From a virus: 64,000 nucleotides of DNA. The stretch lies in IMG/VR virus record IMGVR_UViG_3300031873_000003, positions 29,791-93,790 of that record; one strand, written 5' to 3'. Positions 7,122 to 35,660 of this stretch are shown here, in pieces (within the stretch, counting starts at the first letter, position 1; every line of letters starts with the position of its first letter). The notes below the pieces were generated by a model. It was not told where the DNA came from and did no database searches. It was given only the letters and a program-made list of their open reading frames with translations. The translations under genes were made by a program, and so were the position numbers.

Positions 7122-10100
7122 ATGGCAACAGAAGTAACCCATATAGTTGACCCTGGAGAAGGTGCAGGACACGATTACCATTCCCTATCCTTATGGGAGG
7201 CTGGTGAAGTGGGCGACCTCACGGGCGTAAGGGATGAGATCGCTGTTGCCAAGTGCCGAGCTACAGATGGGGATGCGGATACGACTGCCGTAGTTCTTGA
7301 CGGTTGGATAACTTCCCCCACCCAGTATATCAAAATCTGGACTGATCCTGCGGAATCACATCGCCATGATGGGAAATGGAATACAAGTAAATATCGTCTA
7401 ACTGTTAGTGGTGCTTATACAATACAAAATAGTGAAAATTATACGAAAATAGATGGTATCCAATTTTCCGGGAATACGGGCGCCATATATAGGGGTTTGG
7501 CAATCGGTGCTCTTTCAAATTGTATATTAAATGGACTTAATACTAATAATCTTTCTGGTGTGTTACAAGAATCTGGAGGAGCGGTTACTTGTTGGAATGT
7601 TGTTGTTTTCAATTTGGGGACTGGTGCGAGTGGTTTTATTTCTTATACAAATGGTTCTAATTTTCGTAATTGTACTGCTTTTAATTGTGATAACGTAGGT
7701 ATCGAGAATGGTTATGCGGATGCTGTAGCAACAAATTGTGTGGCACTTACTTGTGGGTCTTGCTTTGATGGCGGTATTGTTGGAAATTATAATTGTTCCT
7801 CAGATACGACTGCTCCTGGGGCTAACTCTCTAAAAAGTAAGTCCGCAGCAAATAATTTTGTTGATATAGGTGCCGGAACAGAAGATTTGCATCTAAAACT
7901 TGGTGCAGATTGTATAGATACAGGAACTGATTTATCTGCTTATTTTACAACTGACATAGATGGTACGACCCGACCGACAGGAGCAAATACCTGGGACATC
8001 GGGGCGGATGAGTATGTAGCTGGTGCAGAATCCCTATCTCCATCTGCTAGTCCTAGTTTAAGTCCATCACCATCCTTATCTCCCAGTGCAAGTTTGTCTC
8101 CTTCCGAGTCGCCATCCCTATCCCCCAGTGCAAGCTTGTCTCCATCTGCCTCGCTTTCGTCTTCTCTTAGTCCTTCGACCTCACCGTCAAAAAGTCCATC
8201 TAAAAGTCCTTCGACCTCACCCTCCAGGAGTCCCTCCAAAAGTCCCTCCAGGAGTCCCAGCGCCAGCCCAAGCTTAAGTCCATCAGCGTCAGCGTCTCCG
8301 TCTTTATCACCATCTATTTCCCCAAGCATATCTCCTTCGGGATCTCCTTCGTTAAGTGCGAGTATAAGTCCAAGTGAGAGCCCGAGTTTGTCACCTTCGG
8401 CTTCGGTAAGCCCGTCTGTCAGTCCTTCAGTCAGTCCATCGGCATCTCCGTCAATGTCACCGAGTGTATCACCGTCGGCATCGCCTTCCGTATCGCCAAG
8501 CCTGAGTCCATCAGCTTCTATTAGCCCTTCGCTTAGTCCATCTGCGAGTCCCTCGGAGAGCCCAAGTGAATCACCGTCGTTGAGTCCTTCTGCTTCAGTT
8601 TCACCAAGCGAATTGCCATCTGTATCACCGAGTATTTCCCCTTCGGGATCACCAAGTGAAAGTCCAAGCCTGTCTCCAAGCGTAAGCCCATCGGAATCTT
8701 TTTCAGAAAGTCCCTCAGAGTCGCCATCCTTATTACCCTCGGCCTCTGTGAGTCCTTCTTTGTCCCCATCTGCAAGCGTGTCACCTTCCGAGTCACCATC
8801 GTTGAGTCCGAGCATCTCACCATCGGTATCTCCATCTGCATCCCCATCACTATCTCCATCAGCGAGTATAAGTCCGTCGGTATCTCCATCAGTTTCACCC
8901 AGCGAAAGTCCTTCATTAAGCCCATCGGCTTCCGTAAGTCCCTCGGTTTCACCTTCGTTATCACCTTCTATCAGTCCAAGCATTAGTCCAAGTCTATCAC
9001 CATCCGTTAGCCCAAGCAAAAGTCCTTCATTAAGCCCCAGCGCTTCACTATCTCCAAGTGTTTCACCAAGCGTCTCTCCATCAGTGAGTCCCAGTATTAG
9101 TCCTTCGGTAAGCCCCTCATTGTCTCCAAGTGCTTCGGTTTCACCGAGTATCAGTCCATCTCTATCGCCGAGCATAAGTCCGAGTGTTAGCCCAAGTGTT
9201 TCACCCAGTATATCACCGTCAATAAGCCCATCTGAATCACCATCGTTTTCTCCGTCAGTTTCGCCATCTGTATCGCCAAGCGTAAGTCCTTCAATCAGTC
9301 CAAGTTTATCACCGTCCCTGAGCCCATCAGTTTCACCATCGGTAAGTCCATCAATCAGTCCATCGGCGTCACCGTCCATGAGTCCGTCTTTAAGCCCCAG
9401 TGCTTCTGTCTCTCCATCAATGTCTCCCTCGGCTTCTCCGAGTTTATCTCCTTCTATTTCGCCATCGGTATCGCCAAGCGTAAGTCCTTCAATCAGTCCA
9501 TCGGTTAGCCCGTCTGTAAGTCCGAGCATTAGTCCATCATTAAGTCCCAGTTTAAGTCCTTCAAAGAGTCCAAGTTTAAGTCCCAGTGCATCATTAAGTC
9601 CCAGTTTAAGTCCGTCTTTATCACCTTCCGAGAGCCCTTCACTTTTACCATCGGCTTCGCTCTCCCCGAGCTTGTCACCGAGCGCCAGCCCAAGCGTATC
9701 ACCATCGGAATCTCCGAGCTTATCGCCCTCGGCTTCGGTAAGTCCTTCCATAAGCCCGAGTTTGTCGGCTTCTGAATCTCCCTCGGTATCCCCAAGCTTT
9801 AGTCCGAGTGAATCACCATCCCTGAGTCCATCCGTTAGTCTTTCAATCTCTCCGTCGATCAGCCCCTCGGTTAGTCCGAGCAAATCACCTTCGGTTTCAC
9901 CCTCTGAGAGTCCGAGTTTAAGTCCTTCCATTAGTCCATCTCTCAGCCCTTCAGCGAGCGTTTCACCATCGATTAGTCCATCCCTCTCCTTAAGTGAGTC
10001 ACCATCGGTAAGCTATAGCCTATCGCCCAGCGCAAGTCCGTCCCTTAGCCCATCGATCTCACCCTCGGAGAGTGCAAGCTTAAGTCCAAGTATCAGTCCT

Positions 10101-10229
10101 TCGGTCTCTCCTTCGGCATCCGAGAGTCCATCAAGGTCGCCCTCAATATCTCCTTCTATGTCTCCGTCTATTGAGGGCGCTATGCTTTTGCAAAATTTTC
10201 ATTACTACTATCAAAACATAGGGGCTTGA
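7122..10229 (+). CDS. beta-helix (pectin-lyase-like) domain protein with a ~700-aa SPSx repeat tract
   Basis: Asn/Cys-ladder N-terminal domain ending DIDGTTRP..WDIGADEY, followed by SPS[LVIAE] repeats. Confidence 0.8.
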   Translation: MATEVTHIVDPGEGAGHDYHSLSLWEAGEVGDLTGVRDEIAVAKCRATDGDADTTAVVLDGWITSPTQYIKIWTDPAESHRHDGKWNTSKYRLTVSGAYTIQNSENYTKIDGIQFSGNTGAIYRGLAIGALSNCILNGLNTNNLSGVLQESGGAVTCWNVVVFNLGTGASGFISYTNGSNFRNCTAFNCDNVGIENGYADAVATNCVALTCGSCFDGGIVGNYNCSSDTTAPGANSLKSKSAANNFVDIGAGTEDLHLKLGADCIDTGTDLSAYFTTDIDGTTRPTGANTWDIGADEYVAGAESLSPSASPSLSPSPSLSPSASLSPSESPSLSPSASLSPSASLSSSLSPSTSPSKSPSKSPSTSPSRSPSKSPSRSPSASPSLSPSASASPSLSPSISPSISPSGSPSLSASISPSESPSLSPSASVSPSVSPSVSPSASPSMSPSVSPSASPSVSPSLSPSASISPSLSPSASPSESPSESPSLSPSASVSPSELPSVSPSISPSGSPSESPSLSPSVSPSESFSESPSESPSLLPSASVSPSLSPSASVSPSESPSLSPSISPSVSPSASPSLSPSASISPSVSPSVSPSESPSLSPSASVSPSVSPSLSPSISPSISPSLSPSVSPSKSPSLSPSASLSPSVSPSVSPSVSPSISPSVSPSLSPSASVSPSISPSLSPSISPSVSPSVSPSISPSISPSESPSFSPSVSPSVSPSVSPSISPSLSPSLSPSVSPSVSPSISPSASPSMSPSLSPSASVSPSMSPSASPSLSPSISPSVSPSVSPSISPSVSPSVSPSISPSLSPSLSPSKSPSLSPSASLSPSLSPSLSPSESPSLLPSASLSPSLSPSASPSVSPSESPSLSPSASVSPSISPSLSASESPSVSPSFSPSESPSLSPSVSLSISPSISPSVSPSKSPSVSPSESPSLSPSISPSLSPSASVSPSISPSLSLSESPSVSYSLSPSASPSLSPSISPSESASLSPSISPSVSPSASESPSRSPSISPSMSPSIEGAMLLQNFHYYYQNIGA
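8031..10170 (+). repeat. coding tandem repeat, SPSx tetrapeptide (12-nt period, codon-degenerate)
   Basis: Direct translation; Ser encoded by both TCN and AGY. Confidence 0.95.
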
Positions 10230-10230
10230 T

Positions 10231-10932
10231 ATGTATGAACTAAAAACCAATACAGCAGTAAGAATACCGGTTGGGCCATTCGTTGACCCTACAGACGGTA
10301 AAACCGCAGAGACATCATTAGTTGTGACTGATATATCTGTCCAGCTTTATCAAACCAAGACAGACGGTACAGCCGTTGTTCGTGCTCAATTCGCCCCTAC
10401 CTCCTCTGGTGGTAATAATGACATGGCCTTAGTTGCAAGTTCAACCGACGGAATGTACGACTTGGAGTTGACGGCCAATCAACTTAATTGGCTTGGGAAT
10501 GGTCGAATCACGTTCTACGATATTGATGGAGCCTTGGTTCACTGGATAGATGTCCAAGTTGTAAATGCTGATTATTTTAATGGTAAGTATGGAACGTCGG
10601 GGGATATTTGGTCAAAGGTTTTACCTGGAACCTATGGAGCAACCGAGGCAGGACATATTTTGGCTGATATAAAAACAAAAACAGATACTATTGGGGGAGC
10701 GGGAGCCCTTGCCTGGACATACACTCTAACGGACGAAGGTACGGGAGACCCCATCGATGGCGCAGAGGTCTGGATAACCACGGATTCATTAGGATCAAAT
10801 ATTGTTGCGTCAGGGGTAACAAATACCTTTGGGGTCGTAAACTTTACATTGGATGCAGGAAGTTACTTTGTTTGGAGGAAAAAGGCAGGATGGAATTTTA
10901 GTCCAGAGCCGGATACCGAAATAGTTTCTTAA
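10231..10932 (+). CDS. putative virion protein with C-terminal Ig/carboxypeptidase-regulatory-like domain
   Basis: GDPIDGAEVWIT...GVTNTFGVVNFTLDAGSY pattern. Confidence 0.55.
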   Translation: MYELKTNTAVRIPVGPFVDPTDGKTAETSLVVTDISVQLYQTKTDGTAVVRAQFAPTSSGGNNDMALVASSTDGMYDLELTANQLNWLGNGRITFYDIDGALVHWIDVQVVNADYFNGKYGTSGDIWSKVLPGTYGATEAGHILADIKTKTDTIGGAGALAWTYTLTDEGTGDPIDGAEVWITTDSLGSNIVASGVTNTFGVVNFTLDAGSYFVWRKKAGWNFSPEPDTEIVS

Positions 10933-10942: not shown

Positions 10943-11968
10943 ATGGCTGGAACAGGCACAGGGAAAAGGGTAAGCGTGACTCCGGTTGCGGGGGTAACAA
11001 GTCCTCCGGCAGGAGCCATGAGTATCGGGGGAGATGGTGGCATCATTGACCTGGCAAGAAAGGCCATCCTTGATGATGACATTGAACCCTACTTATGGAG
11101 TGGGATTGAACTCATCCACTACTTGAACATTATTACCGAAGAGTTATACCGAGAAACGCTTCTAATTGAAGATCGCACCACAACCGCACTTACACAACTG
11201 AAACTCTTGAGCAATCTTAGCGACTATACCATTGACGATAGGGTATTGAACGTCAAGGAAGGCGCCAAGCTGTCCGAGAACACAAACGACAATTATGGCG
11301 TGCTAAAACGAACCTCCCAGGCTTATATGGATCAACTCAAGGCAACATGGCGAGAAATCACAGACATCGCTCCAACACGATTTATCCCTGATTGTGGTAG
11401 AGGGTCTTTGTCTATCTATCCCAAATTTGACGATGAGGGAGAAGTTGTTGGCGCATCAAACATTACTTTCACAGCAGCCACCAAGAAGATATCTAAGGTG
11501 GGAGAGGATTTTACCGCCCACTACGTGGTGGGAGACGAGATTAATGTTTCTGGAACAACCTACAACGACGGATATGTGACGGCAACATTAGTGAGTGCAA
11601 CGGAAATTACTGTTACAGAGACACTTGTTAATGAGACGCTTACCTCGGCAACCTTGCGGAAGGTTCGTGATACCCTTCTGATGGTAGTCAATCGCCTTCC
11701 TCTTACGCCATTTGTTGTTGCTGATATTACTGCTGTTACCGCTGTTTATCCTGAGATTAAGACCATGTATCATAGGGAGCTTCTTTACGGGATTGGGAGG
11801 GAAGCGTTTCAGAAAGAGGACACCCAAACCCTTGACCTGGCAGCGGCGGATCGAAACGGGAAGAGGTTTGAGGAATTCAAGGATAAAGTCAAGAGGAGCT
11901 TGGTGTTCCTAAATCGATCGGAAAGGCAGGGGAGTTCGGGGAGTTCGGGGATTTGGAAGAGTTATTGA
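10943..11968 (+). CDS. putative head-tail adaptor protein
   Basis: Helical N-terminal motif LWSGIELIHYLN, SIYPK, C-terminal YHRELLYG, as in podovirus adaptor proteins. Confidence 0.55.
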   Translation: MAGTGTGKRVSVTPVAGVTSPPAGAMSIGGDGGIIDLARKAILDDDIEPYLWSGIELIHYLNIITEELYRETLLIEDRTTTALTQLKLLSNLSDYTIDDRVLNVKEGAKLSENTNDNYGVLKRTSQAYMDQLKATWREITDIAPTRFIPDCGRGSLSIYPKFDDEGEVVGASNITFTAATKKISKVGEDFTAHYVVGDEINVSGTTYNDGYVTATLVSATEITVTETLVNETLTSATLRKVRDTLLMVVNRLPLTPFVVADITAVTAVYPEIKTMYHRELLYGIGREAFQKEDTQTLDLAAADRNGKRFEEFKDKVKRSLVFLNRSERQGSSGSSGIWKSY

Positions 11969-11983: not shown

Positions 11984-12988
11984 ATGTCAAACATAACCAC
12001 GAGCGTGATTATACCGAGCAGAAATTGCAAGTATGTGTCCCGCACAATACAGGACGTTTTTGAAAAGGCAGGGGGACCGATAGAAGTGATTTGCCTCTTA
12101 GATGGGTACTATCCCGATCCTCCAATCAAGGATCATCCTAATTTAACGATAGTCCATAAACCAGAAGTCACGGGAATGAGAAAGAGCATTAACATGGGGG
12201 TTCAGCTTGCAAAAGGAAAATATATTTGCAAAATGGATGATCATACGATGGTCGGAGAGAACTTTGATAGGATTATCAGTGAGAGTATAGATGACGACTG
12301 GCTTGCTGTCCCGAGTCGATATTCACTCGATCCAGAGAAGTGGGAGAAGGGCAGAGGACCAACTGAATACCTATTCGTTACCTACCCATACAATCACGAC
12401 AATTTGTATGGAAATGGCCTCCACGGAAAGAAGTGGATCGGGGAAGATGGTATCGGAAAGAATATGGGCAAGACTGAGTTCTATTGGATGGAGGATCATC
12501 GAAAGGATAAACGGATTGACGATTTACAAACGTTCCAGGGCTCGTTTTGGGCAATGTCGAAAGAACACTATTTCAGGATCGGAATGTTGGACGAAAAACA
12601 TTGTGATTTGATGGAGAATGAACCGCAGGAGCTGGGGTTTAAAACTTTTTTGTCGGGGGGACGTTGTGTTTTGATAAAAGACGCCTGGCACGCCCATATG
12701 CACAAAAACGAGCGTGAGTTAGACAACAGGGGACGAAGCTGGAAACTTAGTTGGCAGGCCATGAGAGACACGGGAAGGTTTCAAACTTTTGTGTGGATGA
12801 ATAATCGCTGGGCCGGGGCAACTAAAAAGATTGAAGATTTTGTGGAGCATTTCTGGCCTATCCCTAGTTGGCCGTCGGACTGGATTTCGCAAAGGGATCA
12901 GTGGAACAAGGAACACCCAGAGATGAACACAAACTTCCGGATTTTTGACCCCGATGGGCATGACGGATTACCCCTTCGGGAAACATAG
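11984..12988 (+). CDS. glycosyltransferase family 2
   Basis: SVIIPSRN, EVICLLDG, AKGKYICKMDDH. Confidence 0.85.
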   Translation: MSNITTSVIIPSRNCKYVSRTIQDVFEKAGGPIEVICLLDGYYPDPPIKDHPNLTIVHKPEVTGMRKSINMGVQLAKGKYICKMDDHTMVGENFDRIISESIDDDWLAVPSRYSLDPEKWEKGRGPTEYLFVTYPYNHDNLYGNGLHGKKWIGEDGIGKNMGKTEFYWMEDHRKDKRIDDLQTFQGSFWAMSKEHYFRIGMLDEKHCDLMENEPQELGFKTFLSGGRCVLIKDAWHAHMHKNERELDNRGRSWKLSWQAMRDTGRFQTFVWMNNRWAGATKKIEDFVEHFWPIPSWPSDWISQRDQWNKEHPEMNTNFRIFDPDGHDGLPLRET

Positions 12989-13008
12989 AGGGGCGGCGGG
13001 AAACGAAA

Positions 13009-13770
13009 ATGCGTGAACTCATTACCCTAACGGGAAGCCGAGGTTTTCTTGGAACCGCCATCAGGAAGGACATCAAATATCCTTATAGTGAGGTCGATTA
13101 CCTTATCGGAAAAGACCATAAGGACGTCATCGGAAGAAAGGGAACGTTGATCTTTATGTCGTCATGGGTGGACCAGGGAGAGTCGATGGTGAACCCCGCA
13201 AAGTATATTCAAAATAATTTAGTTTACCTTGCGATGATACTGACCAACAATGCGTTCGATCAAGTGATCTTCCCCTCTTCCTGTATGGTCTACGACAAGG
13301 ACGGGAAATTGGAACCAAGCTCAGTGTATGGCTTTACGAAACTCGCTGGAGAGAAGTTGATTAAAATTTACTCTAAGAATTACTGGATATTGAGGATCGG
13401 GAACCCCTACGGGCCGAACGACCATCGATCGGTCTTTCGTGAACTGGCAAGATGCAAAAAAGAAGGGGATACGTTTATAATCTCTGGCGGAAAGATCGTT
13501 AGGGATTATTTTCCTGTTGCTCATATCGCAAAGCTTGTGAACAGGATATTGGACGGAGGTATCGAGCCAGGTATTTATAATGTTGGGTCTGGAAACCACG
13601 TCGTGACATCGGAATATTTAAAAATGTTTTGTGTGAACCATGCGATTAAGCATGTGGTGGTTGATGGGACGGGGACGCTTGCTTCCGGGTACGCAGCCAA
13701 GGATCACATGTTGGCCTGTAGGCAAAAGAAAATATCCGACAGAGAATGGAAGGATTACTATTTGGGATAG
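13009..13770 (+). CDS. NAD-dependent epimerase/dehydratase
   Basis: TGSRGFLG, SS..VY, YGFTK, NPYGP. Confidence 0.85.
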   Translation: MRELITLTGSRGFLGTAIRKDIKYPYSEVDYLIGKDHKDVIGRKGTLIFMSSWVDQGESMVNPAKYIQNNLVYLAMILTNNAFDQVIFPSSCMVYDKDGKLEPSSVYGFTKLAGEKLIKIYSKNYWILRIGNPYGPNDHRSVFRELARCKKEGDTFIISGGKIVRDYFPVAHIAKLVNRILDGGIEPGIYNVGSGNHVVTSEYLKMFCVNHAIKHVVVDGTGTLASGYAAKDHMLACRQKKISDREWKDYYLG

Positions 13771-13780
13771 GGGTATCATC

Positions 13781-14440
13781 GTGAGTGACATAACTCTTCT
13801 GTACTATACAGCAAACAGAATACCTGATCGCTTTGCGGTGAACGTCAGAAACCACTTGATTATAACGGCACAAGGGAAGCCTATTATCAGTATCTCCCAA
13901 CAACCTATCAATCTTGGAGAAAACATATGTGTTGGTGATATAGGATATACCGTTCCAAATGTCTATGCACAGATTTTGGTGGGAGCCAAGATGGCAAAAA
14001 CACAGTACGTTGCTTGTTGTGAAGACGATACCCTGTATGTCCCGGAGCATTTTGACTATATTCCGCCAGACGATACGTTTGGATACAATAAGAACAGGTG
14101 GAATCTTACCGAAAGCCATTTCTATTTACAGTCTCGAAGGTCAAACATGTGTGTATGCATAGTTCCAACCGAATCGATGATAAGGACGCTTGAGGAAAGG
14201 GTAACTAAGTTTGGTTCTGGAGGGCCTCCTCACCTTGGAGAACCTGGGAGACGTGAGAGAACGATGGGAATCAATACAGTAAAGGCTTGTAAGTTCAACA
14301 CTATTGATCCTGTGTTACAAATTAATCATGCCATATCCCTTGGTGGAATTCGGAGGCGGGCGAATTACAACGTAATCCAGGCAGAACATCCTGCGTGGGG
14401 GAAAGCCTCCGCTTTATGGGAAAAAATGGTGAATGGATAG
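13781..14440 (+). CDS. glycosyltransferase (GT-A fold)
   Basis: GTG start; YVACCEDDTLY acidic motif; paralogous to the C-terminal domain of 23113..25587. Confidence 0.7.
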   Translation: MSDITLLYYTANRIPDRFAVNVRNHLIITAQGKPIISISQQPINLGENICVGDIGYTVPNVYAQILVGAKMAKTQYVACCEDDTLYVPEHFDYIPPDDTFGYNKNRWNLTESHFYLQSRRSNMCVCIVPTESMIRTLEERVTKFGSGGPPHLGEPGRRERTMGINTVKACKFNTIDPVLQINHAISLGGIRRRANYNVIQAEHPAWGKASALWEKMVNG

Positions 14441-14723
14441 CAACGACTGGTTCAGTTGGAGCCCCGAAACAGAAGAGCGGATGAATTTTGTTGGTGGACG
14501 GTATACTGCCTGCGAAGTAATCAGGCAAGCATACCGTAGGATTCAAGACCCGGAAGTAAAGTTGATGTTAAGGATTGCTACAACGATGTGCAAGTCGATG
14601 GCAACAAGAATCACCAAATATGATGGGCGAAGGTGGGGAAAGGATATATACCCGCTTAATCCATACTTAAATAGAGAAACGGAAATGTTGGTGAAGGTTG
14701 ACATCCTCCCCCCACTAAAGTAG
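14433..14723 (+). CDS. small helical protein, paralog of 25577..25819; C-terminus altered by the IS insertion
   Basis: C(E/Q)xxRxxYxxxxDPE(V/I)KL motif shared with 25577; last codons come from the IS end. Confidence 0.65.
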   Translation: MDSNDWFSWSPETEERMNFVGGRYTACEVIRQAYRRIQDPEVKLMLRIATTMCKSMATRITKYDGRRWGKDIYPLNPYLNRETEMLVKVDILPPLK

Positions 14724-16032
14724 GGGGATTCCCAGAAAGGTTAAACAGAGTGCTTAACATTTCCAAGTTGGTTCACGTTTCTACGAGGTCTGCCTTTTCG
14801 AGCCGAAGCCCGAACTGGTCTTGTAACCTCTCCACGCGCTTTTACGGAGTGTCCCTCCGCATCACGGATATTTATCGCTGCGTTATCATCGCGGTCGTGG
14901 TGAGTCTTACACTCGGGGCAATACCACTCACGAATGCTCAAGGGAAGCGATTCCAGTATGTACCCGCAGACATTACAGCGTTTACTACTTGGGAAAAATG
15001 GATCGATAATCCGAAGATCCTTTTCGTACCAGTCGCATTTGTAGGTAAGCATTCCCCGAAACATGCCAAAGGCGGCATCGCCGATAACTCTTGCCAGTTT
15101 GTGATTTCTGACCATACCTCGAACATTCAGATCTTCGATTTGAATTACGTCAAAGCGACGAACCAAATCGGTGGTCACTTTGTAGAGGTGGTCTTTCCGC
15201 ATGTTAGCAATATGCTCTTGAAGACGAGCAACCTTGAGAATAGCCCGGCGCCGTCTACCGCTCCCCTTCTTCTTCTTGGCAAGCTTCCGCTGCAGCTTCT
15301 TCAGCTTCAGGAGATTCGTCCCAAGAGCCCTGGGGTTTGGGATTTGTTCGCCATTGGACAAGGTAGCCAGACGAGAAACGCCGAGGTCGATGCCGATTTT
15401 CAAGCCAGTCTTCGGAAGGGGCAGCCTCACTTCATCGAGGCAGAGAGTAACAAAGTATTTCCCACTTGGCAACTTGGTTATTGTCACCGTGGTGGGGATA
15501 CTCTGGAAACCTCTGCTCCAGTGAATGTCAAGTCTGCCAATGCCGGAGATGCTCAAATTGCGATTGGCAGCATCCCACTTGAACGCGCTTCGGGTGTACT
15601 CAGCGGTCTGCTTGCCTCGCTTCTTCTTGAATGTCGGATACTTCGCAGTCTTGTTCCAGAAGTTGATGTAAGCAGTCTGGAGATGCCGAAGCGCTTGCTG
15701 GGTCGGGACGCAAGAGATCTCGTTGAGCCATTCGGTTTCCGGTTGCCTTTTCAGTTCGGTGAGCATAGCGGAAGATTCGTTGTACCCAATGCTTCGGTTC
15801 TCTTTGAACCAAGCATCAGTACGGATGCGCAGAAAACGATTGAAGACGAACCGACAGGAACCGAAAATCCGAGAAAGGCTCTCGGCCTGTTGTTTTGTCG
15901 GGTAAACCCGGTATGTGTGTCTCATCTTCACAATACTATTGTATCTTGTGTAAATTCAGAAGTCAAACAAAAATAAAAGATGGCATTTCCTCCCCCGGCT
16001 AAAGTCGGGGGTATCCATGCCGAAAAATTCTC
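14698..16032 (-). mobile_element. tnpB-only IS605/IS1341-type element inserted after TTCAT
   Basis: Right end ...GGGGGAGGATGTCAA; left-end hairpin at about 15990-16012; the empty site reconstitutes ...GTGAAGG|ATGAAC. Confidence 0.8.
14741..15931 (-). CDS. tnpB: TnpB RNA-guided nuclease
   Basis: N-terminal YRVYPT motif; RuvC residues GIDLG, IEDL, DRDDNAA; CxxC..CxxC zinc finger; TTGACT-17-TACAAT promoter upstream. Confidence 0.95.
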   Translation of the reverse strand: MKMRHTYRVYPTKQQAESLSRIFGSCRFVFNRFLRIRTDAWFKENRSIGYNESSAMLTELKRQPETEWLNEISCVPTQQALRHLQTAYINFWNKTAKYPTFKKKRGKQTAEYTRSAFKWDAANRNLSISGIGRLDIHWSRGFQSIPTTVTITKLPSGKYFVTLCLDEVRLPLPKTGLKIGIDLGVSRLATLSNGEQIPNPRALGTNLLKLKKLQRKLAKKKKGSGRRRRAILKVARLQEHIANMRKDHLYKVTTDLVRRFDVIQIEDLNVRGMVRNHKLARVIGDAAFGMFRGMLTYKCDWYEKDLRIIDPFFPSSKRCNVCGYILESLPLSIREWYCPECKTHHDRDDNAAINIRDAEGHSVKARGEVTRPVRASARKGRPRRNVNQLGNVKHSV

Positions 16033-16782
16033 ATGAACCATCCAACCTGTGAAGTAATAACGATGTGGTATAACGATGTGTTTCTGGCGCCATTTTTCCT
16101 GAAACATTATTCGTATGCAGACCATATTCGAGTCATTATAGATGCGGATACAGATGATAAGGCAGAATGCGAGGCGCTTGTTCATCAGTATCCAAACGCA
16201 TCCGCAGAGTTCTTCAGTTTTCCTGATGGGTATAACGTAGATGTTCGGCAAAATTTAATCTTTTCCGCATGTAATGAATCTAAGGCTGACTGGGTGATTG
16301 TGCCAGATTCAGATGAGTTTATATTTTGTGGAGATATGCATCAGTTTCTATCATCTCAAACGGCAGACATAGTTGTTGTTAGGCTATACCAGGTTTTTAG
16401 GAATAGTTTAGACGCAGACCTTGATTTATCTCAACCAATAGAGGGTCAGCGTAGACATGGAGACCCAAATTATGTCAAGGGAAGAAACTCGCATGGAAGC
16501 AAACCAATCATCATAAGGACAGGCAAGAAGATACACCTTATGCCGGGAAATCATAATGTTTGGAATAAACATCGCTACACGGTAAGCAAAGATATTCTTA
16601 TTGGCCAGCACTGGCAAATGGCTGATCCTTGTTTTTGTGTTCCTCGAAGGCTGTCGAGGAGCAAGAGGTTAGGCGATGCAAGCCTCCCGACCGGATATGC
16701 TTTTCATGACCTTCATGTGACCGAAGAATATATTCTATCTCAATGTAATGCTCACTTAAACGATGGAGAATTGCCGGCTTGA
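16033..16782 (+). CDS. glycosyltransferase (GT2/GT92-like)
   Basis: FFLKHY, DWVIVPDSDEF, PGNH motifs. Confidence 0.8.
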   Translation: MNHPTCEVITMWYNDVFLAPFFLKHYSYADHIRVIIDADTDDKAECEALVHQYPNASAEFFSFPDGYNVDVRQNLIFSACNESKADWVIVPDSDEFIFCGDMHQFLSSQTADIVVVRLYQVFRNSLDADLDLSQPIEGQRRHGDPNYVKGRNSHGSKPIIIRTGKKIHLMPGNHNVWNKHRYTVSKDILIGQHWQMADPCFCVPRRLSRSKRLGDASLPTGYAFHDLHVTEEYILSQCNAHLNDGELPA

Positions 16783-17339
16783 AAGCAACAGACATACCTG
16801 GATGGATGGACGAAAAAGAGATTGAGTGGCTCGCAGAACAGGCCAAGCACCACAATCTTATCGTTGAAATCGGAACGTGGCTTGGAAGGTCTGCCTATGC
16901 GATGGGAGAAGTAACGCCAGGAAAAATTATCACTATTGATAGTTTTAAGATGGAGGGTGTTCCTCCGAAAAGGTGGCCAACGGCAATAGAGGCACACAAG
17001 GAAATGGAAACCGATCCGGATTGGATTTATCGCCGTTGCCTGGATAACCTTGATGAACTTATAACAAGCGGAAAGGTAGAGGTTATTCGGGGAGATAGCC
17101 TTAAGGTTATCAAGGATTTGGATGGTATAAAAGGTCAGGTGGACATGGTATTTATTGATGGAAGTCATGATTATGTTTCTGTTCAAGAGGATATCTATAA
17201 ATATCGGCCTTTACTAAAAAAGGGTGGGTTACTGTGCGGGCACGACTTGGCTCACCAGGTAAAAAAGGCGGTTAGTCGCTTAGTTCCTGACTATAAGTTA
17301 GTTGCAGGAACTTTGATCTGGGCAGCAATAGAGAGTTAA
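16779..17339 (+). CDS. class I SAM-dependent methyltransferase (Methyltransf_24-like)
   Basis: VEIGTWLGRS, FIDGSHDY, GGLLCGHD. Confidence 0.85.
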   Translation: MKATDIPGWMDEKEIEWLAEQAKHHNLIVEIGTWLGRSAYAMGEVTPGKIITIDSFKMEGVPPKRWPTAIEAHKEMETDPDWIYRRCLDNLDELITSGKVEVIRGDSLKVIKDLDGIKGQVDMVFIDGSHDYVSVQEDIYKYRPLLKKGGLLCGHDLAHQVKKAVSRLVPDYKLVAGTLIWAAIES

Positions 17340-25819: not shown

Positions 25820-26789
25820 CTTTGAATATAAAAACCTTATAGGCATTTCAAGGCAGAAGGATACCAACAGAATTCCGGTAGGATATGTTGCCTACGCCAT
25901 GAATGTTGATTCGGATGATGAAAAGAAACTTCGTAGACGCAGGGGTCTTACTTCTGTTTCCACGGTGAATACCCATAGCGTATGGTCAAACAGGGATATC
26001 TGTCTATGTGTCCAGGGAGGCGTCTTAAAAGAGGTAACAATTAACCTTGTTACCAACACAGCCACCTATGTTACCCTGTTATCTGGGGCGGGCGATACAC
26101 CCATGATCTTTCGGGAAGCGGGGGATATGGTCTTTTTTTCCAATAGCGACGTTTTTGGATATATCCGGGAACATGCGGTACATGGTATTTCAGAAGTTAG
26201 CGAGACCTTTAAGGTTCGGATGGTGGGAGGACACCTGATGGAATATTGGGATTCTCGCCTATGGGTATTTCAGGATAACATTCTGATTTATTCCGATGCC
26301 ACAGAACCAATGGTTAGAGACGAGAGGCATAACTTCGTGACGTTCAATGGCCGTGGAAGGATGCTTGAGGCCGTCAGGGACGGGATTTACGTGAGCGATA
26401 ACGAAAGGTGTGGTTTTCTTCAGGGAGGAGCGGGAGACCCTCCCAAGTTCAATTATACCGAGGTCTGTCCTTCTCCATGTATCGAAGGCATGGCAGTCTC
26501 AAGTGTTGAACAATTAGCAGGAATATCGGTTAAGGTGGTATTCTGGGTTACAGAGGAAGGTTGTTACATGGGACTGCCAGGGGGGCAAGTGAATAAGGTT
26601 ACGGGGGATCATTTTTACATTGAAGGGGCGTCAATAGGGAGGATGATGGTTTTGAATAGGTCTTTTCCGGATCATACAAGTATTGACCAGCTATTAGGGA
26701 CCTATGACTTATGGCCTGGCTATGGAGGAATGGAAATAGAGTTAGATGTTCCGGCGACGGACGTTGACGGTCGCATTACTGCGGCTTAA
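25806..26789 (+). CDS. putative tail nozzle or stabilisation protein
   Basis: AMNVD...LRRRRG N-terminus and beta-propeller-like composition. Confidence 0.5.
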   Translation: MPQLNFEYKNLIGISRQKDTNRIPVGYVAYAMNVDSDDEKKLRRRRGLTSVSTVNTHSVWSNRDICLCVQGGVLKEVTINLVTNTATYVTLLSGAGDTPMIFREAGDMVFFSNSDVFGYIREHAVHGISEVSETFKVRMVGGHLMEYWDSRLWVFQDNILIYSDATEPMVRDERHNFVTFNGRGRMLEAVRDGIYVSDNERCGFLQGGAGDPPKFNYTEVCPSPCIEGMAVSSVEQLAGISVKVVFWVTEEGCYMGLPGGQVNKVTGDHFYIEGASIGRMMVLNRSFPDHTSIDQLLGTYDLWPGYGGMEIELDVPATDVDGRITAA

Positions 26790-26827
26790 TCTTACGCTTT
26801 TGCGTAGAAGAAAGGGAGGAAAGGAAA

Positions 26828-27619
26828 ATGACGGTAAAATATTCGAGGGCTTTAATAAATTTGTTGGCTGATGGAAAGGGATTAAGGGAAATTTATGGAG
26901 ATTGCGTCTTAGATGTGTATTCTGGGACGGCTCCTACAAACCCGGAAGATGCGGCAACGGGAACAAAGCTTTGCAAGTTTACCTTGTCAAGTGCCGCCGT
27001 AGTAACTACTGACCGAGGCGTTCCGAGAGTCTACAAGCTTGTTCCTGCTACCGGTTCTACGCCGGGCAGCACCATTAAAGTTACCGTTACGGTGGAGGGA
27101 GTTGGTACCACACACATCTATACCATTTTGGCGGCTGACAGTACAGACCAGAAGGTTGCCGTGAAGGTGGCACAGATGTTAAACGATCTTCCTCAGATTC
27201 AGGCTATCTGTGAGGGAGACACAGTAAATATCTGGGCACAATGTAGGATTCCTGGTTTGGCATTGACGATTGCCGATGGAACCGGTACTTATGGAATCAA
27301 CTGCTCGGCAAAGGTGGCGGCGGTCGCCACAAACGCCCTCCAGTTTAGTGCGCCAACGGCAGGGGTTATTTCAAAACCAACGGCAGCTACCTGGACAGGA
27401 ACTAACCTTGCAACCGGAACGGCAGGATATTTTAGATTATGCCTTCCGGTAGACCCCGAAAGTGCGGGAACTCCAACCGCTGACACTGGTTACATCTACA
27501 AGAGAACTCAAGGAACGCTTGCGACGGTAGGAGGGGACGCACAGATTGATCCAACAACGGTGACATTGAGTGCAACGTCAACGGTTACATCGTTCAGCTT
27601 GACAGTACCGACGTCTTAG
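26828..27619 (+). CDS. putative tail structural protein
   Basis: YSGTAP..EDAATGTKL...TGTAGYFRL motif; Thr/Ala-rich. Confidence 0.55.
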   Translation: MTVKYSRALINLLADGKGLREIYGDCVLDVYSGTAPTNPEDAATGTKLCKFTLSSAAVVTTDRGVPRVYKLVPATGSTPGSTIKVTVTVEGVGTTHIYTILAADSTDQKVAVKVAQMLNDLPQIQAICEGDTVNIWAQCRIPGLALTIADGTGTYGINCSAKVAAVATNALQFSAPTAGVISKPTAATWTGTNLATGTAGYFRLCLPVDPESAGTPTADTGYIYKRTQGTLATVGGDAQIDPTTVTLSATSTVTSFSLTVPTS

Positions 27620-27664
27620 GACGTGTTTTTTAAAACCATTCTTGCTTTATAATAGAGGGAAACT

Positions 27665-30600
27665 ATGCCTGAATCTGCTTCGATGAGTCCGAGCGAATCG
27701 CCGAGCGAATCACCTTCGTTGAGTCCATCGGCCTCTGCATCACCATCGATTTCGCCGTCGCTCAGCCCGAGCGCAAGCGTCAGTCCATCGATTTCGCCTT
27801 CGAGATCACCCTCCGGGAGTCCTTCGGCGTCACCATCGTTAAGTCCGAGCGCAAGCATTTCGCCTTCGACGTCACCATCCAAAAGTCCGTCGGAGTCGCC
27901 ATCGAGAAGTCCATCCAAAAGTCCTTCTGGAAGTCCTTCAATGTCTCCAAGCGAAAGTCCCTCAAAATCGCCTTCGGCGTCACCATCCTTAAGTCCGTCA
28001 ACGTCACCATCGTTAAGCCCCAGCGCAAGCCTTTCTCCGTCCCTGAGTCCTTCGGCCAGCTTGTCGCCGAGTGCAAGCCCAAGCGTATCACCCAGCATGT
28101 CACCCTCTGCATCGCCATCGTTAAGTCCAAGTCCCGTGATAGATATTATTAAGGCTGGATGTTCGATAAGCAGCATAAGCTCAAATAATGGACGAAAACT
28201 TGTCCGAGATAGCACAGGAAGATTGCACGTTGTTTATCATAGGGTTGCAACTGTCTGGAATATTTATCATTCGTATTCGGATGACAGCGGACAAACATGG
28301 ACGGAAGAAGCGATTACAAGTGATGCATCGTACAACCAGTGGAGTCCATCCATAGCCATCGATAGTAGCAATCACTTGCATGTGGTATGGCATGGAACAT
28401 CTGTCTTATCCACCACTATTGACCAAATCAGATATTCTAAATACGAAGGTTCGTGGAGTACGCCGGTTGACTTAACCGGGGAAGTTTACACGCAGGCACT
28501 TCCTTCGATAGCCATTGATAGCGGTGATCATATACATGTGGTTTGGGAGGGAATGTCCTCCGTGTCCCCAAGTTACACTCAGGTTAGGTATTCTCAGTAC
28601 GAATCTTCCTGGAGTGCGCCTACCAACCTAACCAGCGGAAACCTCTGGAGGTGGAATCCCTCCGTAGCCATTGATAGTGGGAATAATTTGCATATTGTTT
28701 GGGGGGAAGGCCCCGATAGTCTTACCAGCCAAATAATGTATTCTAAGGGTGCGCCCTGGAGCCCCGTCCAGTTAAGCGATGGCAGTTATATGCAGGCTGA
28801 CGCCTCTATTGCCATCGATAGCAGTAATCATGTGCACGTTGTCTGGGAGGGTAGGTCTCCCGCTCTCCCGGACTATAATCAAATCAGGTATGCTAAATAT
28901 GAAGCTTCGTGGAGCACGGTTGTCGATTTAACTGGGACGAAGACCGTGGGTTATGATCAGCAAAGCCCTTCCATAGCGATCGATACCGGTGACCGGTTAC
29001 ATGTAGTGTGGTATGGCGCATCGGTGGTTTCTCCAAGCGCTTATCAAATCAGGCATACCAAATATGACGGTTCATGGAGTACGGACACTGACTTAACTAC
29101 TGATAGTGTGTCTCAATATTATCCTTCAACTCTATGGGCAAACAATATTTATTCGGTCAATGCACAGGGTTATTGTTTCGCCTACATGGATGACACAACC
29201 CTAACGTTTTATGCGAGCGACGAAATATCTTTCTATGGAATGGCTTCCCCCAGCTTATCGCCAAGCCTGAGCCCAAGCAAATCGCCAAGTCAATCTCCAT
29301 CACTCTCTTCTTCGGGCAGCCCAAGCTTAAGTCCGAGCCCGTCGCCATCGCTTTCACCCTCGGCCTCGGAAAGCCCTTCGGCGTCACCATCGTTGAGTCC
29401 AAGCGCAAGCCTATCTCCTTCGGCCTCTGTCAGTCCAAGCACATCACCCTCGCTATCTCCATCGGCCTCTATTAGCCCAAGCGAGTCACCGTCGAGAAGT
29501 CCCTCTAAATCACCTTCGGCGTCACCATCTATAAGCCCTTCGGCGTCACCATCGTTAAGTCCGAGCGCAAGCCTATCGCCTTCGGCCTCTGTCAGTCCAA
29601 GCGCATCTCCTTCGCTATCTGCAAGTTTGAGTCCATCGCCTTCGGCCTCTGTCAGTCCAAGCGCATCTCCTTCGGTGAGCCCAAGCCCAAGTGCGGGAAC
29701 CCTTATCTGTGATTTAGCCTTTGCTCTTAGCGTTCCGGCAATAGAGGTTAGCGGAAAAATCGCTGGCCCAGGGTTGATAGGACCATCGCTTGAATTACCG
29801 GCGATTGTGGTTTCAGGCAATATCGTTACCGGCGGGGCGTTTTCGGCAATCCTTGAGCTTGCACCTCATGCATCAGGAACTATTCGTGTTGGAGGGTTGT
29901 TTTCGGGGACAATCAATGTTCCCATTGAGGTATCAGGAACGATTTATAGTGGTGGCGGATTGGTTGCCTCGTTAATCCTTCCTGCGATACATGTTGATGG
30001 CCTCATTGCCAAAAACACGACTGGGTTTGAAATCACTGTTCCCGTGATAACCCTTTCGGGCACGATCATTACCGGAAGAGTGGTTAGTGGCGGAGTAAGC
30101 GTTCCTGCGATTAAGGTTCTGGCAACCATCGGCCATTATAATTCGCTGACATTTGACCTCGATTTGCCTGAGATAACTACCAACCTTTTTATTATGGGAG
30201 CGCAAAAGATCACGGTTCAAGGCGCTCCTCTTCGGAAGGCGTTCGTTGTTAATTTAGCTCATTTCGGGGTGACAGAATACTCTGGATACTCTTTCAATTC
30301 ATTTGCTAACTACCATTTTAGTAAAACCTACATAGGCGCCAGCGAAGAAGGTATTTTTGTGCTGGACGGGGATGACGACAATGGCGTTAGGATCAATGCT
30401 ACAATTCAACCAGGGAATGAAGACCTTTGGTCACAGACGATAAAGCGACTTAGGGAGGGTTTTGTAACGATGAGGGGTGGGCCAATTTCCATCGAACTGA
30501 TTCTTGACGAAGGAAGGTTAGACCCGGTGACGAGGGATTTAGAGTATGTCGAAAGTACGATTCATGAAGAGCGATTTAAAATATCACGGGGGTTGAAGAA

Positions 30601-30700
30601 TAGATTTTTTTCTGTGATTTTTAAAAACTTAGGTGGGAATGACTTTAGCCTTGAGTCTTTCCGATTTTTTTGCGATGAGATTCAAAGGAGAAAACGTTGA
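27665..30700 (+). CDS. virion protein with two SPSx tracts, a repeat beta-propeller (PSIAIDS..HVVW) and a tail-like C-terminus
   Basis: SPSx at about 27674-28135 and 29244-29693; five or six PSIAID repeats between them. Confidence 0.8.
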   Translation: MPESASMSPSESPSESPSLSPSASASPSISPSLSPSASVSPSISPSRSPSGSPSASPSLSPSASISPSTSPSKSPSESPSRSPSKSPSGSPSMSPSESPSKSPSASPSLSPSTSPSLSPSASLSPSLSPSASLSPSASPSVSPSMSPSASPSLSPSPVIDIIKAGCSISSISSNNGRKLVRDSTGRLHVVYHRVATVWNIYHSYSDDSGQTWTEEAITSDASYNQWSPSIAIDSSNHLHVVWHGTSVLSTTIDQIRYSKYEGSWSTPVDLTGEVYTQALPSIAIDSGDHIHVVWEGMSSVSPSYTQVRYSQYESSWSAPTNLTSGNLWRWNPSVAIDSGNNLHIVWGEGPDSLTSQIMYSKGAPWSPVQLSDGSYMQADASIAIDSSNHVHVVWEGRSPALPDYNQIRYAKYEASWSTVVDLTGTKTVGYDQQSPSIAIDTGDRLHVVWYGASVVSPSAYQIRHTKYDGSWSTDTDLTTDSVSQYYPSTLWANNIYSVNAQGYCFAYMDDTTLTFYASDEISFYGMASPSLSPSLSPSKSPSQSPSLSSSGSPSLSPSPSPSLSPSASESPSASPSLSPSASLSPSASVSPSTSPSLSPSASISPSESPSRSPSKSPSASPSISPSASPSLSPSASLSPSASVSPSASPSLSASLSPSPSASVSPSASPSVSPSPSAGTLICDLAFALSVPAIEVSGKIAGPGLIGPSLELPAIVVSGNIVTGGAFSAILELAPHASGTIRVGGLFSGTINVPIEVSGTIYSGGGLVASLILPAIHVDGLIAKNTTGFEITVPVITLSGTIITGRVVSGGVSVPAIKVLATIGHYNSLTFDLDLPEITTNLFIMGAQKITVQGAPLRKAFVVNLAHFGVTEYSGYSFNSFANYHFSKTYIGASEEGIFVLDGDDDNGVRINATIQPGNEDLWSQTIKRLREGFVTMRGGPISIELILDEGRLDPVTRDLEYVESTIHEERFKISRGLKNRFFSVIFKNLGGNDFSLESFRFFCDEIQRRKR

Positions 30701-31974: not shown

Positions 31975-32676
31975 ATGCCAGAGCGACTAAATAAAAGGAT
32001 TTGCGAGTTTTGCGGCAAGGAATATCAGACACACAACAGTACAAGAACGTGCTCTATAAAGTGTCGTGACCACTTAAAAACGCAGAACAGGATACAGCGA
32101 TCTGAAACTAAGGAATGCCCGATCTGCGGAGAGATAAGTAAGTTGCAGTGGATTGCTCACGGGATAAGTGTGTGCAGTTTGAGATGCAAACGAACAATTA
32201 ACTCAAGGGAATGGCGCAACCAACATGGCGGATCAGTTGATATTAGTAAACGTAGCACAATAAAGCCTTTTGTAACTTGTAAGGTGTGCGGGAAAATCGT
32301 TTTGGGTAAAAGCTACAAACAATTATATTGCAGTAGAGAGTGTAAAATAATTGGCGGACATCGAAACAAGAAAATGATAGTTGATAATAAAAGGGAGTCT
32401 ATAAAGACTTGCGAAATATGCGGCGTGTCTATTGATAAAATTCCAACTCCAAGAGAACTCAACTTCAGATCGTTTGGGCAAAGGGCGATGGATACTAAGG
32501 TGCAATTCGATCACATTGTTTGCCGAGTTGATAACGGACAAAACAACGACGAGAATCTTCGAGGTGTGTGTTGGATGTGTAACCACGTAAGGGGAACGAT
32601 GGACAAGAAGTTCGACAACGCCGTGGCAAAAGCGTCAATAGCGTTTTGGGCTGAGGTATTTGCTACAATTACCTAG
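31975..32676 (+). CDS. HNH endonuclease with multiple CxxC zinc motifs
   Basis: FDHIV...NLRGVCWMCNHVRG; AGGAGG RBS. Confidence 0.8.
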   Translation: MPERLNKRICEFCGKEYQTHNSTRTCSIKCRDHLKTQNRIQRSETKECPICGEISKLQWIAHGISVCSLRCKRTINSREWRNQHGGSVDISKRSTIKPFVTCKVCGKIVLGKSYKQLYCSRECKIIGGHRNKKMIVDNKRESIKTCEICGVSIDKIPTPRELNFRSFGQRAMDTKVQFDHIVCRVDNGQNNDENLRGVCWMCNHVRGTMDKKFDNAVAKASIAFWAEVFATIT

Positions 32677-33452: not shown

Positions 33453-35660
33453 TTGGCCGACATCATAAAGTATGGAACTGGAATTCTATATGGTACGGGT
33501 CATCTATATGGAGAATATATTCCCTCGGCCTCGATATCTCCGAGCCTTTCGCCCTCTAAGGGTCCTTCGGTTTCTCCATCCCTAAGTCCTTCGGCTTCTA
33601 TAAGTCCTTCGTTATCTCCATCAGTCTCACCTTCAATCAGTCCTTCGGTCTCACCTTCGGTCTCACCCTCTTTAAGCCCATCTGTTAGTCCAAGTTTATC
33701 ACCGTCGGCCAGTCCATCCTTGAGTCCATCATTGAGTCCTTCTGCTTCCTTGAGTCCCAGTCTAAGTCCGTCTAAATCTCCTTCTGTATCACCCTCGGTA
33801 TCACCTTCACTATCACCCTCTCTTAGTCCGAGTGAATCTCCGAGTCTCTCTCCTTCGGCCTCATTATCTCCATCATTGAGTCCGTCTGTTTCACCGTCCG
33901 TTAGCCCATCGATTTCACCGAGCCTATCACCGAGTTTATCTCCGTCGGAAAGTCCGAGTCTTTCACCCTCTGCGAGTTTAAGCCCATCTGAAAGTCCGTC
34001 ACTTAGTCCAAGTGTATCGCCTTCTTTTTCGCCATCGATGAGTCCGTCTTTATCACCTTCGGAGAGCCCTTCGTTAAGTCCAAGTGCTTCGCTCTCTCCG
34101 AGCCTGTCACCAAGCAAATCTCCAAGTCTGTCACCATCGGCTTCGCTCTCACCCAGCTTGTCACCGAGCGAAAGTCCTTCTGCCAGTCCTTCTGTAGGCA
34201 GTTTTTCCTTATCTCCAAGTGCATCGCCTTCACTTTCTCCCTCTGCGAGCCTGAGTCCATCCATTTCTCCAAGTGAATCCTTGAGCCTTAGTCCGAGTGC
34301 CAGTCCAAGCGTATCGCCTTCGGCATCACCGAGCCTTAGTCCGAGCGAATCTCTATCCATAAGTCCATCTCTTAGTCCTTCAATCTCTCCATCAATCAGC
34401 CCTTCGGTTAGTCCAAGTAAATCGCCTTCGTTAAGCCCATCTGAGAGTCCAAGTGTAAGTCCGAGTCTGTCACCGAGCGTCAGTCCGTCAATATCTCCGA
34501 GTTTATCGCCCTCCCTGAGCCCTTCGGAAAGCCCGAGTGAATCACCTTCAATCAGCCCATCGGCAAGTCTTTCGCCGAGCCTTAGCCCCAGCGGGTCGCC
34601 AAGTCTTTCCCCAAGCGTCTCTATCTCACCGAGTATGTCTCCGAGTGCCTCTCCATCCATTAGTCCTTCAAAGAGTCCCTCGGAGTCACCCTCGATGTCT
34701 GCTTCGGTAAGCCCGTCTTTATCCCCATCAGTCTCCGAATCTCCATCGGTTTCTCCATCGGTATCACCTTCGGCATCACCCAGCCTTAGTCCAAGTGAGT
34801 TAGCGTCCTTATCTCCATCGGAGAGTCCCAGTAAATCACCAAGCTTGTCTCCGAGTATTTCACCCTCGGGATCACCGAGCTTAAGTGTGAGCGAATCACC
34901 TTCAGAGAGTCCAAGCCTATCAGCCTCTCTGTCTCCAAGTGAATCTCCCTCGGAATCTAAGAGTCTGAGCGCATCAGAAAGTCCGTCAGAATCACCAAGC
35001 GTTAGTCCATCGGTTAGTCCATCTTTATCGCCGTCAATGTCGCCTTCCAAGAGTGAAAGCGAATCACCAAGCCTTTCGCCTTCGGAAAGTCCTTCGAGGT
35101 CGCCCTCGTTAAGTCCCTCGGCGAGTCCGTCGATATCTCCATCACTTTCCCTTAGTCTTTCGCCTTCGGAAAGTCCATCGGTTTCTCCAAGCGTTAGTCC
35201 CTCAGCGAGTCCGTCGATGTCTCCATCGATATCTCCAAGCGTGAGTCCCTCGTTCAGTCCTTCGGCCAGCTTATCTCCATCCGAAGAACCGATCGAGCTT
35301 CCTCCTCTTTTTTCGCCAGAATTATACTATAAGAAATTAAAGATGGTTCGTTCTTCAATAACGCCCGATGGTGATTTTTTATATAAAACAATGAAAATGG
35401 TTGTTCCTCCCCTGCTTAGCCTAGAGGGTGGGTTTGGGTATCAAAACCTCAAAACGGTTATTCCACCTTCGTTAAGTCCGGAAGGTGATTTTTCATATAA
35501 GACAATGAAAATGGTTGTTCCTCCCCTGCTTAGCCCAGAGGGTGGGTTTGGGTATCACAAGACAAGGATGATCAGCAAGACAGGATTGCCGGAAGGTGGT
35601 TTTATGTATAAGAAATTGAAGATGATAATTCCTCCATCACCAAGTGCAGAGGCAGGTTAG
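33453..35660 (+). CDS. SPSx-repeat protein with a short YG-rich N-terminus and C-terminal PEGxFxYK repeats
   Basis: TTG start; SPSx tract at about 33522-35282. Confidence 0.75.

Follow-up and report, generated by a model that had tools for sequence, protein, structure and literature searches.

The window analysed here is the right-hand 64 kb of a 93,790-bp viral record (IMGVR_UViG_3300031873_000003), and this study concerns a group of late genes within it that encode long tracts of a Ser-Pro-Ser-x tetrapeptide (SPSx) on either side of a cluster of glycosyltransferase (GT) genes. Positions 1-149 and 93642-93790 of the record, which is classed as linear, overlap by approximately 149 bp, and on the basis of this overlap the record is a complete or nearly complete phage genome; the end repeat probably reflects a circular assembly or a terminal repeat. 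The host is probably to be found among the ultra-small bacteria of the Patescibacteria. All late genes lie on the + strand, the upstream order being small terminase, large terminase, portal, a 285-residue protein and a 234-residue SPSx protein, the latter referred to below as the post-portal protein. The GT cluster (11984-25587) is located on the same strand between the structural genes 10943-11968, a PHROG match to the phrog_399 structural protein, and 25806-30700, and is followed by gene B (27665-30700), an HNH gene, gene C (33453-35660) and large tail-type proteins, one of which comprises 2,202 residues. The remaining SPSx gene of the window, gene A (7122-10229), precedes the cluster.

The sequence-only reading had placed four SPSx tracts, of about 1600 residues in total and roughly half serine, in these three genes, and translation of the open reading frames combined with a script scan found the tracts there, with 1,642 residues, 48-49% Ser, 21-23% Pro and 351 exact SPSx units. 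When the fifth tract in the upstream post-portal protein is included, approximately 1,800 SPSx residues are spread across four late proteins. The variable position is aliphatic in 75% of cases (L 26%, A 19%, V 16%, I 11%, M 3%), followed by E (12%) and K (5%), and in an extended chain the serines would fall on one face while the proline and the aliphatic residue would fall on the other. The further assertion that the repeat is maintained at the level of the protein was likewise upheld: all six serine codons and all four proline codons are employed, and Tandem Repeats Finder detected only short DNA-level patches of at most 155 nucleotides, which indicates that it is the protein repeat that is kept up. 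A degenerate DNA pattern for five SPSx units returned 156 matches on the + strand of the genome and none on the - strand or in the reversed control. It might be argued that the tracts are untranslated or misframed simple-sequence DNA, or the product of an assembly error, given that long open frames also exist on the opposite strand over the tracts and that a public gene caller reported only a 246-residue product at the end of gene B. We consider this scarcely credible, since the frames run without stops into folded domains (the beta-helix, the propeller and the conserved core described below), gene B starts behind a good ribosome-binding site, the codons are diverse with few DNA-level repeats, and the same architecture recurs in hundreds of independent assemblies, so that the comparative data effectively refute it.

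Gene A encodes a right-handed beta-helix (residues 1-298), an SPSx tract of 723 residues and 157 SPSx units (residues 299-1021; nucleotides 8016-10184) and a 15-residue C-terminal tail. No homolog of gene A was found in the close relatives examined. Its beta-helix has 200 homologs, mostly from Patescibacteria, with PF13229 recognised in several, and SPSx was present in only two of 120 homologs of this domain, which suggests that the tract is an add-on that follows the GT module and not the domain to which it is attached. Gene B opens directly with the SPSx repeat, with a GAGGG ribosome-binding site and a TATAAT box upstream, and is composed of a first tract (residues 1-162; 27665-28150), a BNR-like propeller (residues 163-521), a second tract (residues 522-681; 29228-29707) and a structural core (residues 684-1011). 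As regards the domains proposed beforehand, the beta-helix of gene A is borne out by its homologs and by PF13229, while the BNR-like propeller of gene B has weaker support. The core of gene B matches phrog_26502 'virion structural protein' (E 2e-13) and occurs as a stand-alone protein of approximately 309 residues in about 40 relatives; among the SPSx proteins, gene B alone is tied to a structural protein in this way. The public protein collection holds only a 246-residue product for gene B (29963-30700, P0127) and no 1011-residue product, and no further long fused forms of the core were found in a protein database that lacks even this genome's own 1011-residue open reading frame. Public gene callers seem to break or skip SPSx open reading frames, and the practical warning to be drawn is that protein databases under-represent SPSx proteins and that searches of such databases under-detect them.

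Gene C consists of a 21-residue N-terminus, an SPSx tract of 597 residues (residues 22-618; 33516-35306) and five C-terminal 'EGGF.Y' repeats of approximately 20 residues each, a block that it has in common with a 312-residue non-SPSx protein of a GT-less relative. The post-portal protein (L002:12908-13612, + strand), which ends 1.2 kb before the window, combines a 53-residue head with 180 residues of SPSx. Its 285-residue upstream neighbour gives a weak DUF642-like match, and the pair occupies L002:12026-13612 (27026-28612 of the genome).

Between the tracts, some eight GT genes with tailoring enzymes had been anticipated, which agrees with the seven genes carrying eight GT domains, plus a weak eighth gene, that were recognised in the cluster. 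Pfam places GT2 domains in the genes starting at 11984, 19248, 19885 and 23113, GT17 in that starting at 21593 and a weak GT2-like domain in that starting at 16033, and the tailoring genes comprise two clear methyltransferases and a weak one together with epimerase-like, asparagine-synthase-like and weak radical-SAM genes. No membrane segment was found in any of the cluster GTs, which fits a cytoplasmic modification of phage proteins prior to assembly. Four types of component recur elsewhere (see below) and are taken as the core module: two DxH paralogs, a new GT-A family and Methyltransf_24. The larger DxH enzyme is a two-domain GT (23113-25587), the N-terminal domain of which is GT27-like (DSH, WGxQGxE, His and a Zn-ribbon insert), while its paralog at 11984-12988, a GT-A glycosyltransferase with a DDH (DxH) motif, is 28% identical to the GT27-like enzyme over its full length. 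The enzyme at 13775-14440, predicted to have a GT-A fold, is paralogous to the C-terminal domain of 23113-25587. It has a conserved AEDD (DxD) motif and no Pfam or Protein Data Bank (PDB) sequence match; its AlphaFold2 model has a predicted local distance difference test (pLDDT) score of 94, and the top Foldseek matches are AvpGT, TarP and SpsA. The Methyltransf_24 member of the core (17342-17935) is likely a sugar O-methyltransferase.

Ten proteins homologous to the N-terminal domain of 23113-25587 were aligned to build a profile, which showed an invariant DxH (D88, H90), an invariant W-G-x-Q-G-x-E (W223, G224, Q226, G227, E229) and an invariant histidine (H251), as well as a CxxC...CxxC insert. 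The 14 best matches of this profile among solved structures are all GT27 polypeptide GalNAc-transferases, led by 1XHB (E 4.8e-12) and followed by T2, T4, T7, T9 and T10. Two stretches are aligned, corresponding to the DxH half and the Gal/GalNAc-T motif half, with DxH opposite DAHC of 1XHB and the second motif and histidine opposite WGGENLE and GHVFR. The phage enzyme therefore resembles GT27 (e.g. PDB 1XHB and 2FFU) in its GT-A domain, DxH metal motif, WGGE-like second motif and downstream histidine, and would resemble it also in acting on dense Ser/Pro-rich acceptor tracts if the proposed acceptor is correct. Eukaryotic GT27 enzymes start mucin-type O-glycosylation and favour proline near the acceptor residue, and proline is offered by the SPSx repeat. 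The phage enzyme differs from GT27 in possessing the Zn-ribbon insert and, often, a fused second GT-A domain; sequence identity is low, and in Pfam the enzyme falls under generic GT2 only.

The linkage between SPSx proteins and GT clusters that had been suggested as a check was pursued across viruses in both directions, with controls, and proved to be strong. Starting from the repeat, at least 119 viral loci were identified with a degenerate DNA pattern spanning four SPSx units, and most of them encode (SP)n dipeptides; when SPSx loci were defined by a period-4 tract of at least 60 residues, the GT core lay within a few kb in 11 of 17 SPSx loci and in none of the 87 comparison loci, of the (SP)n or another type (Fisher p = 5.5e-11). 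None of the structural genes of the present phage is shared by these 11 GT-positive loci. Searching the whole record revealed GT in four further SPSx-bearing loci, some with shorter tracts, and the four that remained negative are fragments of 10-38% completeness, while all SPSx-bearing records that are at least 90% complete possess GT. In the opposite direction, relatives of the GT27-like enzyme are encoded on 380 IMG/VR contigs. Among the best 80 of these, SPSx was present in 22 of 22 fully flanked loci (10 kb of flank) and in 40 of the 58 that were truncated, in nearly every case on the same strand, as opposed to one of 80 in a reversed-sequence control. Fourteen GT-bearing records are at least 98% complete, six of them with terminal repeats and seven with a Terminase_6N large terminase unlike that of the present phage; their completeness and differing terminases indicate that the carriers are real and unrelated tailed phages. 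The usual SPSx protein in these phages has a globular N-terminal domain of 160-390 residues, a long tract and a short, often repetitive tail, and when ten such N-terminal domains from complete phages were scanned against PHROG, most had no match and three were weakly similar to virion-structural, baseplate or tail-fibre families. Against 50,697 deposited phage genomes, no match was obtained with the core GT by tblastn or with the GT cluster by megablast, the cultured phages of INPHARED being without the GT. Single-protein scans of IMG/VR with the gene B core and with 13640-14440 gave no matches, and alignment-based scans were needed.

These distributions bear on the suggestion that SPSx tracts are plain, unmodified flexible linkers and that the enzymes of the cluster have another substrate, for example phage DNA, a small molecule or a polymer of the host envelope. 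Ser/Pro-rich linkers are widespread and do not have to be modified, GT2-type enzymes mostly make polysaccharides, and the acceptor assignment made here is a prediction from sequence, all of which would accommodate such a view. We nevertheless judge it improbable, as the two-way linkage is specific to the period-4 SPSx repeat (no GT in the 87 (SP)n loci, SPSx in every fully flanked GT locus), tracts and cluster are jointly present or absent in close relatives, the nearest solved relatives of the core GT are protein Ser/Thr O-glycosyltransferases, and the cluster GTs are devoid of the membrane segments that are usual in polysaccharide synthases.

Close relatives were retrieved using the structural protein 10943-11968 as query, which yielded five related viral contigs (L003 to L007). 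In L003 to L006 the homolog of 10943-11968 directly abuts that of 25806-26789, the whole 13.6-kb cluster being missing and no SPSx tract present, and the gene B homolog of L004 to L006 consists of the C-terminal core only, without SPSx. Whole-record searches of G003 (145 kb, 100% complete) and G004 (88 kb, 94% complete) returned no GT2 match and no match to the SPSx pattern. In the GT-bearing relative L007 the cluster occupies the corresponding position, and the post-portal protein has an SPSx-containing ortholog whose N-terminus is 76% identical; the post-portal protein and its 285-residue neighbour are both present in L007 and both missing from the GT-less L003. In a further GT-bearing fragment (L136), an SPSx tract of 135 residues joins the gene B core precisely where the core natively begins. 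Comparison of these relatives thus reveals three states within one lineage, namely no cluster and no tract, a small cluster with an SPSx-core fusion, and the state of the present phage, in which an SPSx-propeller-SPSx-core protein is accompanied by genes A and C.

Since gain and loss of the repeats go hand in hand with gain and loss of the enzymes across phages, the tracts are very probably the targets of the GTs. Taken together, the findings would favour, with somewhat better than even probability, the interpretation that the late operon of this tailed phage holds a dedicated protein O-glycosylation module for which the SPSx tracts serve as acceptors. The sequence-only reading had envisaged heavily glycosylated, extended stalks presenting the beta-helix and propeller domains, a view that is supported in part. 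The link from SPSx to acceptor has been strengthened by co-occurrence in both directions and by GT27 homology, and gene B is built on a core that is a conserved structural protein. What we infer is that the tracts accept sugars and which sugars these would be, that gene A, gene C and the post-portal protein are located in the virion, and what the tracts would do (adhesion, reach or shielding). Under this proposal, the soluble DxH GT-A enzymes (the N-terminal domain of 23113-25587, and 11984-12988) would add the first sugar to SPSx serines in the cytoplasm, the remaining GT-A, GT2 and GT17 enzymes would lengthen the glycan, and Methyltransf_24 and other tailoring enzymes would modify it. The tracts so modified would then be long stalks or brushes, stiffened and resistant to proteases: in gene B a stalk would connect the conserved structural core to the BNR-like propeller and leave a free brush of 162 residues at the end, while in gene A a 723-residue stalk would bear the beta-helix domain.

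Several observations weigh against this proposal, the first of which is that the module also resides in Patescibacteria chromosomes, among housekeeping genes and adjoining SPSx giants without signal peptides. In a set with one genome per species, the enzyme is encoded on 117 contigs; nearly all of these belong to Patescibacteria (Woesebacteria, Saccharibacteria, WWE3, Levybacteria, Parcubacteria and others), and DPANN archaea contribute a few. An SPSx tract lies downstream on the same strand at 21 of the 26 loci whose flanks are complete. A 938-kb chromosome (L285) carries approximately 15 GT and methyltransferase genes together with a 2,372-residue SPSx protein, flanked by the methyltransferase-like 3-dmu-9_3-mt on one side and by TatC and RibD_C on the other. 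The chromosomal module indicates that a cellular role exists and that the module is not a phage invention. The main rival is accordingly a remodelling of the host surface, whereby SPSx proteins and GTs would decorate the infected Patescibacteria cell without being built into the virion, e.g. for attachment to the cell's own partner organism or for the exclusion of other phages. Such a role would be consistent with the presence of the same module in cells with genomes of approximately 0.9 Mb, with the failure to find the terminase of this phage in five such genomes (a weak negative), with the lack of structural homologs for genes A and C and the post-portal protein, and with published work (PMC12911398) in which GT and lectin genes carried by Patescibacteria phages are interpreted as auxiliary genes for the host surface. 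It is opposed by two GT-bearing phages in which SPSx is joined in frame to the native N-terminal end of a structural protein that is conserved across the family, by the location of the module within the late operon, where its genes overlap and share the strand of the operon, and by the solubility of the GTs and the lack of a signal peptide at the start of any SPSx protein, cellular or viral, no export route being evident. The in-frame fusion argues against a host-surface role for gene B, though not for genes A and C, and overall we regard such a role as unlikely. Among the C-terminal tails of chromosomal SPSx giants of Patescibacteria (L285:17980-18252, L275, L221, L228, L232 and L255) there is a shared domain of approximately 60 residues with the motif IPSWN..GRP....G..GFN.ET..LE...G..W, and other C-terminal tails consist of short tandem motifs (KTVNGL, YKYTDRGT) comparable to the 'EGGF.Y' repeats of gene C; these tails may represent anchoring or binding modules.

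Further points on the same side concern the virion, the ancestry of the module and the enzyme itself. Glycosylation is predicted from the genes of a phage without an isolate, and virion membership from one PHROG name, synteny and weak nozzle/hub leads. The AlphaFold2 model of the gene B core is poor (pLDDT 46), its Foldseek matches to podovirus nozzle proteins reach a template modelling (TM) score of at most 0.26, and the podovirus nozzle/hub and Phage_stabilise leads are both weak. Trees of three shared proteins from six relatives leave unsettled the number of gain and loss events and whether the GT-bearing relatives form a single clade. GT27 enzymes have a lectin domain, a membrane anchor and a Golgi setting, unlike the phage enzyme: the C-terminal half of the core GT is a second GT-A domain or is absent, no ricin-type or other Pfam lectin was detected, and no hydrophobic segment that could provide a type II membrane anchor was found. 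On account of the missing lectin domain and anchor the core GT is not a true member of GT27, and a cytoplasmic setting is implied for it in phage and bacterium alike. The one line of evidence that points to a putative polypeptide acceptor for this enzyme is its co-occurrence with SPSx tracts.

Among known systems, the glycosylation module proposed here is reminiscent of the serine-rich repeat glycoproteins of Gram-positive bacteria (Fap1, GspB and SraP, encoded in gtf and accessory-Sec loci), which also place very long serine-rich repeats beside dedicated cytoplasmic GTs, are glycosylated before export, as is proposed here to occur before assembly, and carry a binding domain on a stalk. The repeat unit is the SPSx tetrapeptide here as opposed to an SxSx dipeptide in those proteins, and the carrier is a phage or Patescibacterium as opposed to a Gram-positive bacterium. 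Unlike the serine-rich repeat glycoproteins, SPSx proteins have no hydrophobic leader and no LPXTG end, SecA2 and SecY2 not having been searched for by family. A GtfA/GtfB-type system was considered and rejected, PF00534 giving only a 12-bit match, below cut-off, in 20736-21608. Extensins and arabinogalactan proteins of plants and algae (Ser-Pro or Ser-Hyp) likewise form Ser/Pro repeat stalks that are rigid when glycosylated, but these require prolyl 4-hydroxylase, and their motif and GT families differ from those of the phage; extensin-type hydroxyproline glycosylation was rejected, as no prolyl hydroxylase (PF13640) is present in the genome.

Among viruses, chloroviruses and mimiviruses glycosylate their capsids or fibrils. 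Virion glycosylation by phage-encoded GTs in mycobacteriophages is mentioned in two reports (PMC11256854, PMC12363180). All three groups resemble the present phage in having their own GTs next to structural genes and structural proteins as proposed targets. In those systems, however, short capsid or tail regions or giant-virus fibrils are concerned, whereas the present phage would, judging from its genes, offer hundreds of acceptor-repeat residues to a GT27-like enzyme.

A broader and more tentative proposal, to which we would attach slightly less than an even chance, is that Patescibacteria phages and cells run mucin-type O-glycosylation with soluble GT27 relatives on tracts of a thousand residues or so, and that the phages clothe their virion proteins in glycan brushes or stalks carrying receptor-binding domains. 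To our knowledge, glycosylation of phage-particle proteins is established in few cases, none of which involves dedicated mucin-like acceptor tracts. If the proposal is correct, no earlier bacteriophage would be known to wear a mucin-like coat, and the family of enzymes that initiates animal mucin glycosylation may have a reservoir in prokaryotes or viruses. The module itself is real and apparently undescribed, and no paper was found on an SPSx or GT27-like module in phages or in bacteria of the candidate phyla radiation. It would be widespread, with 380 viral contigs and the genomes of 117 species in the collections searched, and would explain many 'orphan' GT/methyltransferase clusters of Patescibacteria and their phages that are now read as host-surface auxiliary genes. 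It would also provide a testable acceptor for the prokaryotic GT27-like family and suggest a way in which binding domains are presented by phages whose hosts are ultra-small, episymbiotic and coated with an S-layer.

The remaining genes of the cluster, on the + strand unless stated otherwise, include an NAD-dependent epimerase/dehydratase-like gene (13009-13770), which matches the C-terminal two thirds of its family only, and a GT2-like gene (16033-16782) with a Glyco_tranf_2_4 match below the curated cut-off. These are accompanied by a first Methyltransf_24 gene (16779-17339), an asparagine-synthase-like PP-loop enzyme (17937-18662) and a weak radical-SAM-like protein (18637-19284), the latter two being candidates for glycan tailoring. 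Downstream lie two GT2 glycosyltransferases (19248-19970 and 19885-20739), the protein with the faint GT4-like match noted above (20736-21608), a GT17-family glycosyltransferase (21593-22354) and a weak methyltransferase-like protein (22347-22820). A mobile-element gene for TnpB (IS605 OrfB / Cas12f-like; 14741-15931, minus strand) lies within the cluster and outside the pathway, and the 408-residue open reading frame on the + strand at 14750-15976 is spurious, TnpB being encoded on the minus strand. An in-frame insert of approximately 180 residues (about 24100-24650) separates the GT domains of 23113-25587 and holds a minus-strand HNH open reading frame (24076-24795; weak HNH_3 match); as the two domains are contiguous in L007 and L136, the insert is recent. 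The late operon is unusually rich in selfish elements, comprising TnpB, HNH genes at 31975-32676 and 24076-24795, and a LAGLIDADG homing-endonuclease, intein-like insert at residues 275-346 of the large terminase (L002:6056-8728). No tRNA genes were found in the genome. The major capsid protein is encoded at 1914-3005 (+ strand), and its relatives align to residues 77-357 only. Finally, gene A and its neighbours 6393-7121 and 10231-10932 form a block (6393-10932) that has no counterpart in the five relatives and sits between homologs of 5555-6010 and 10943-11968, with 10231-10932 containing a weak CarboxypepD_reg-like domain.

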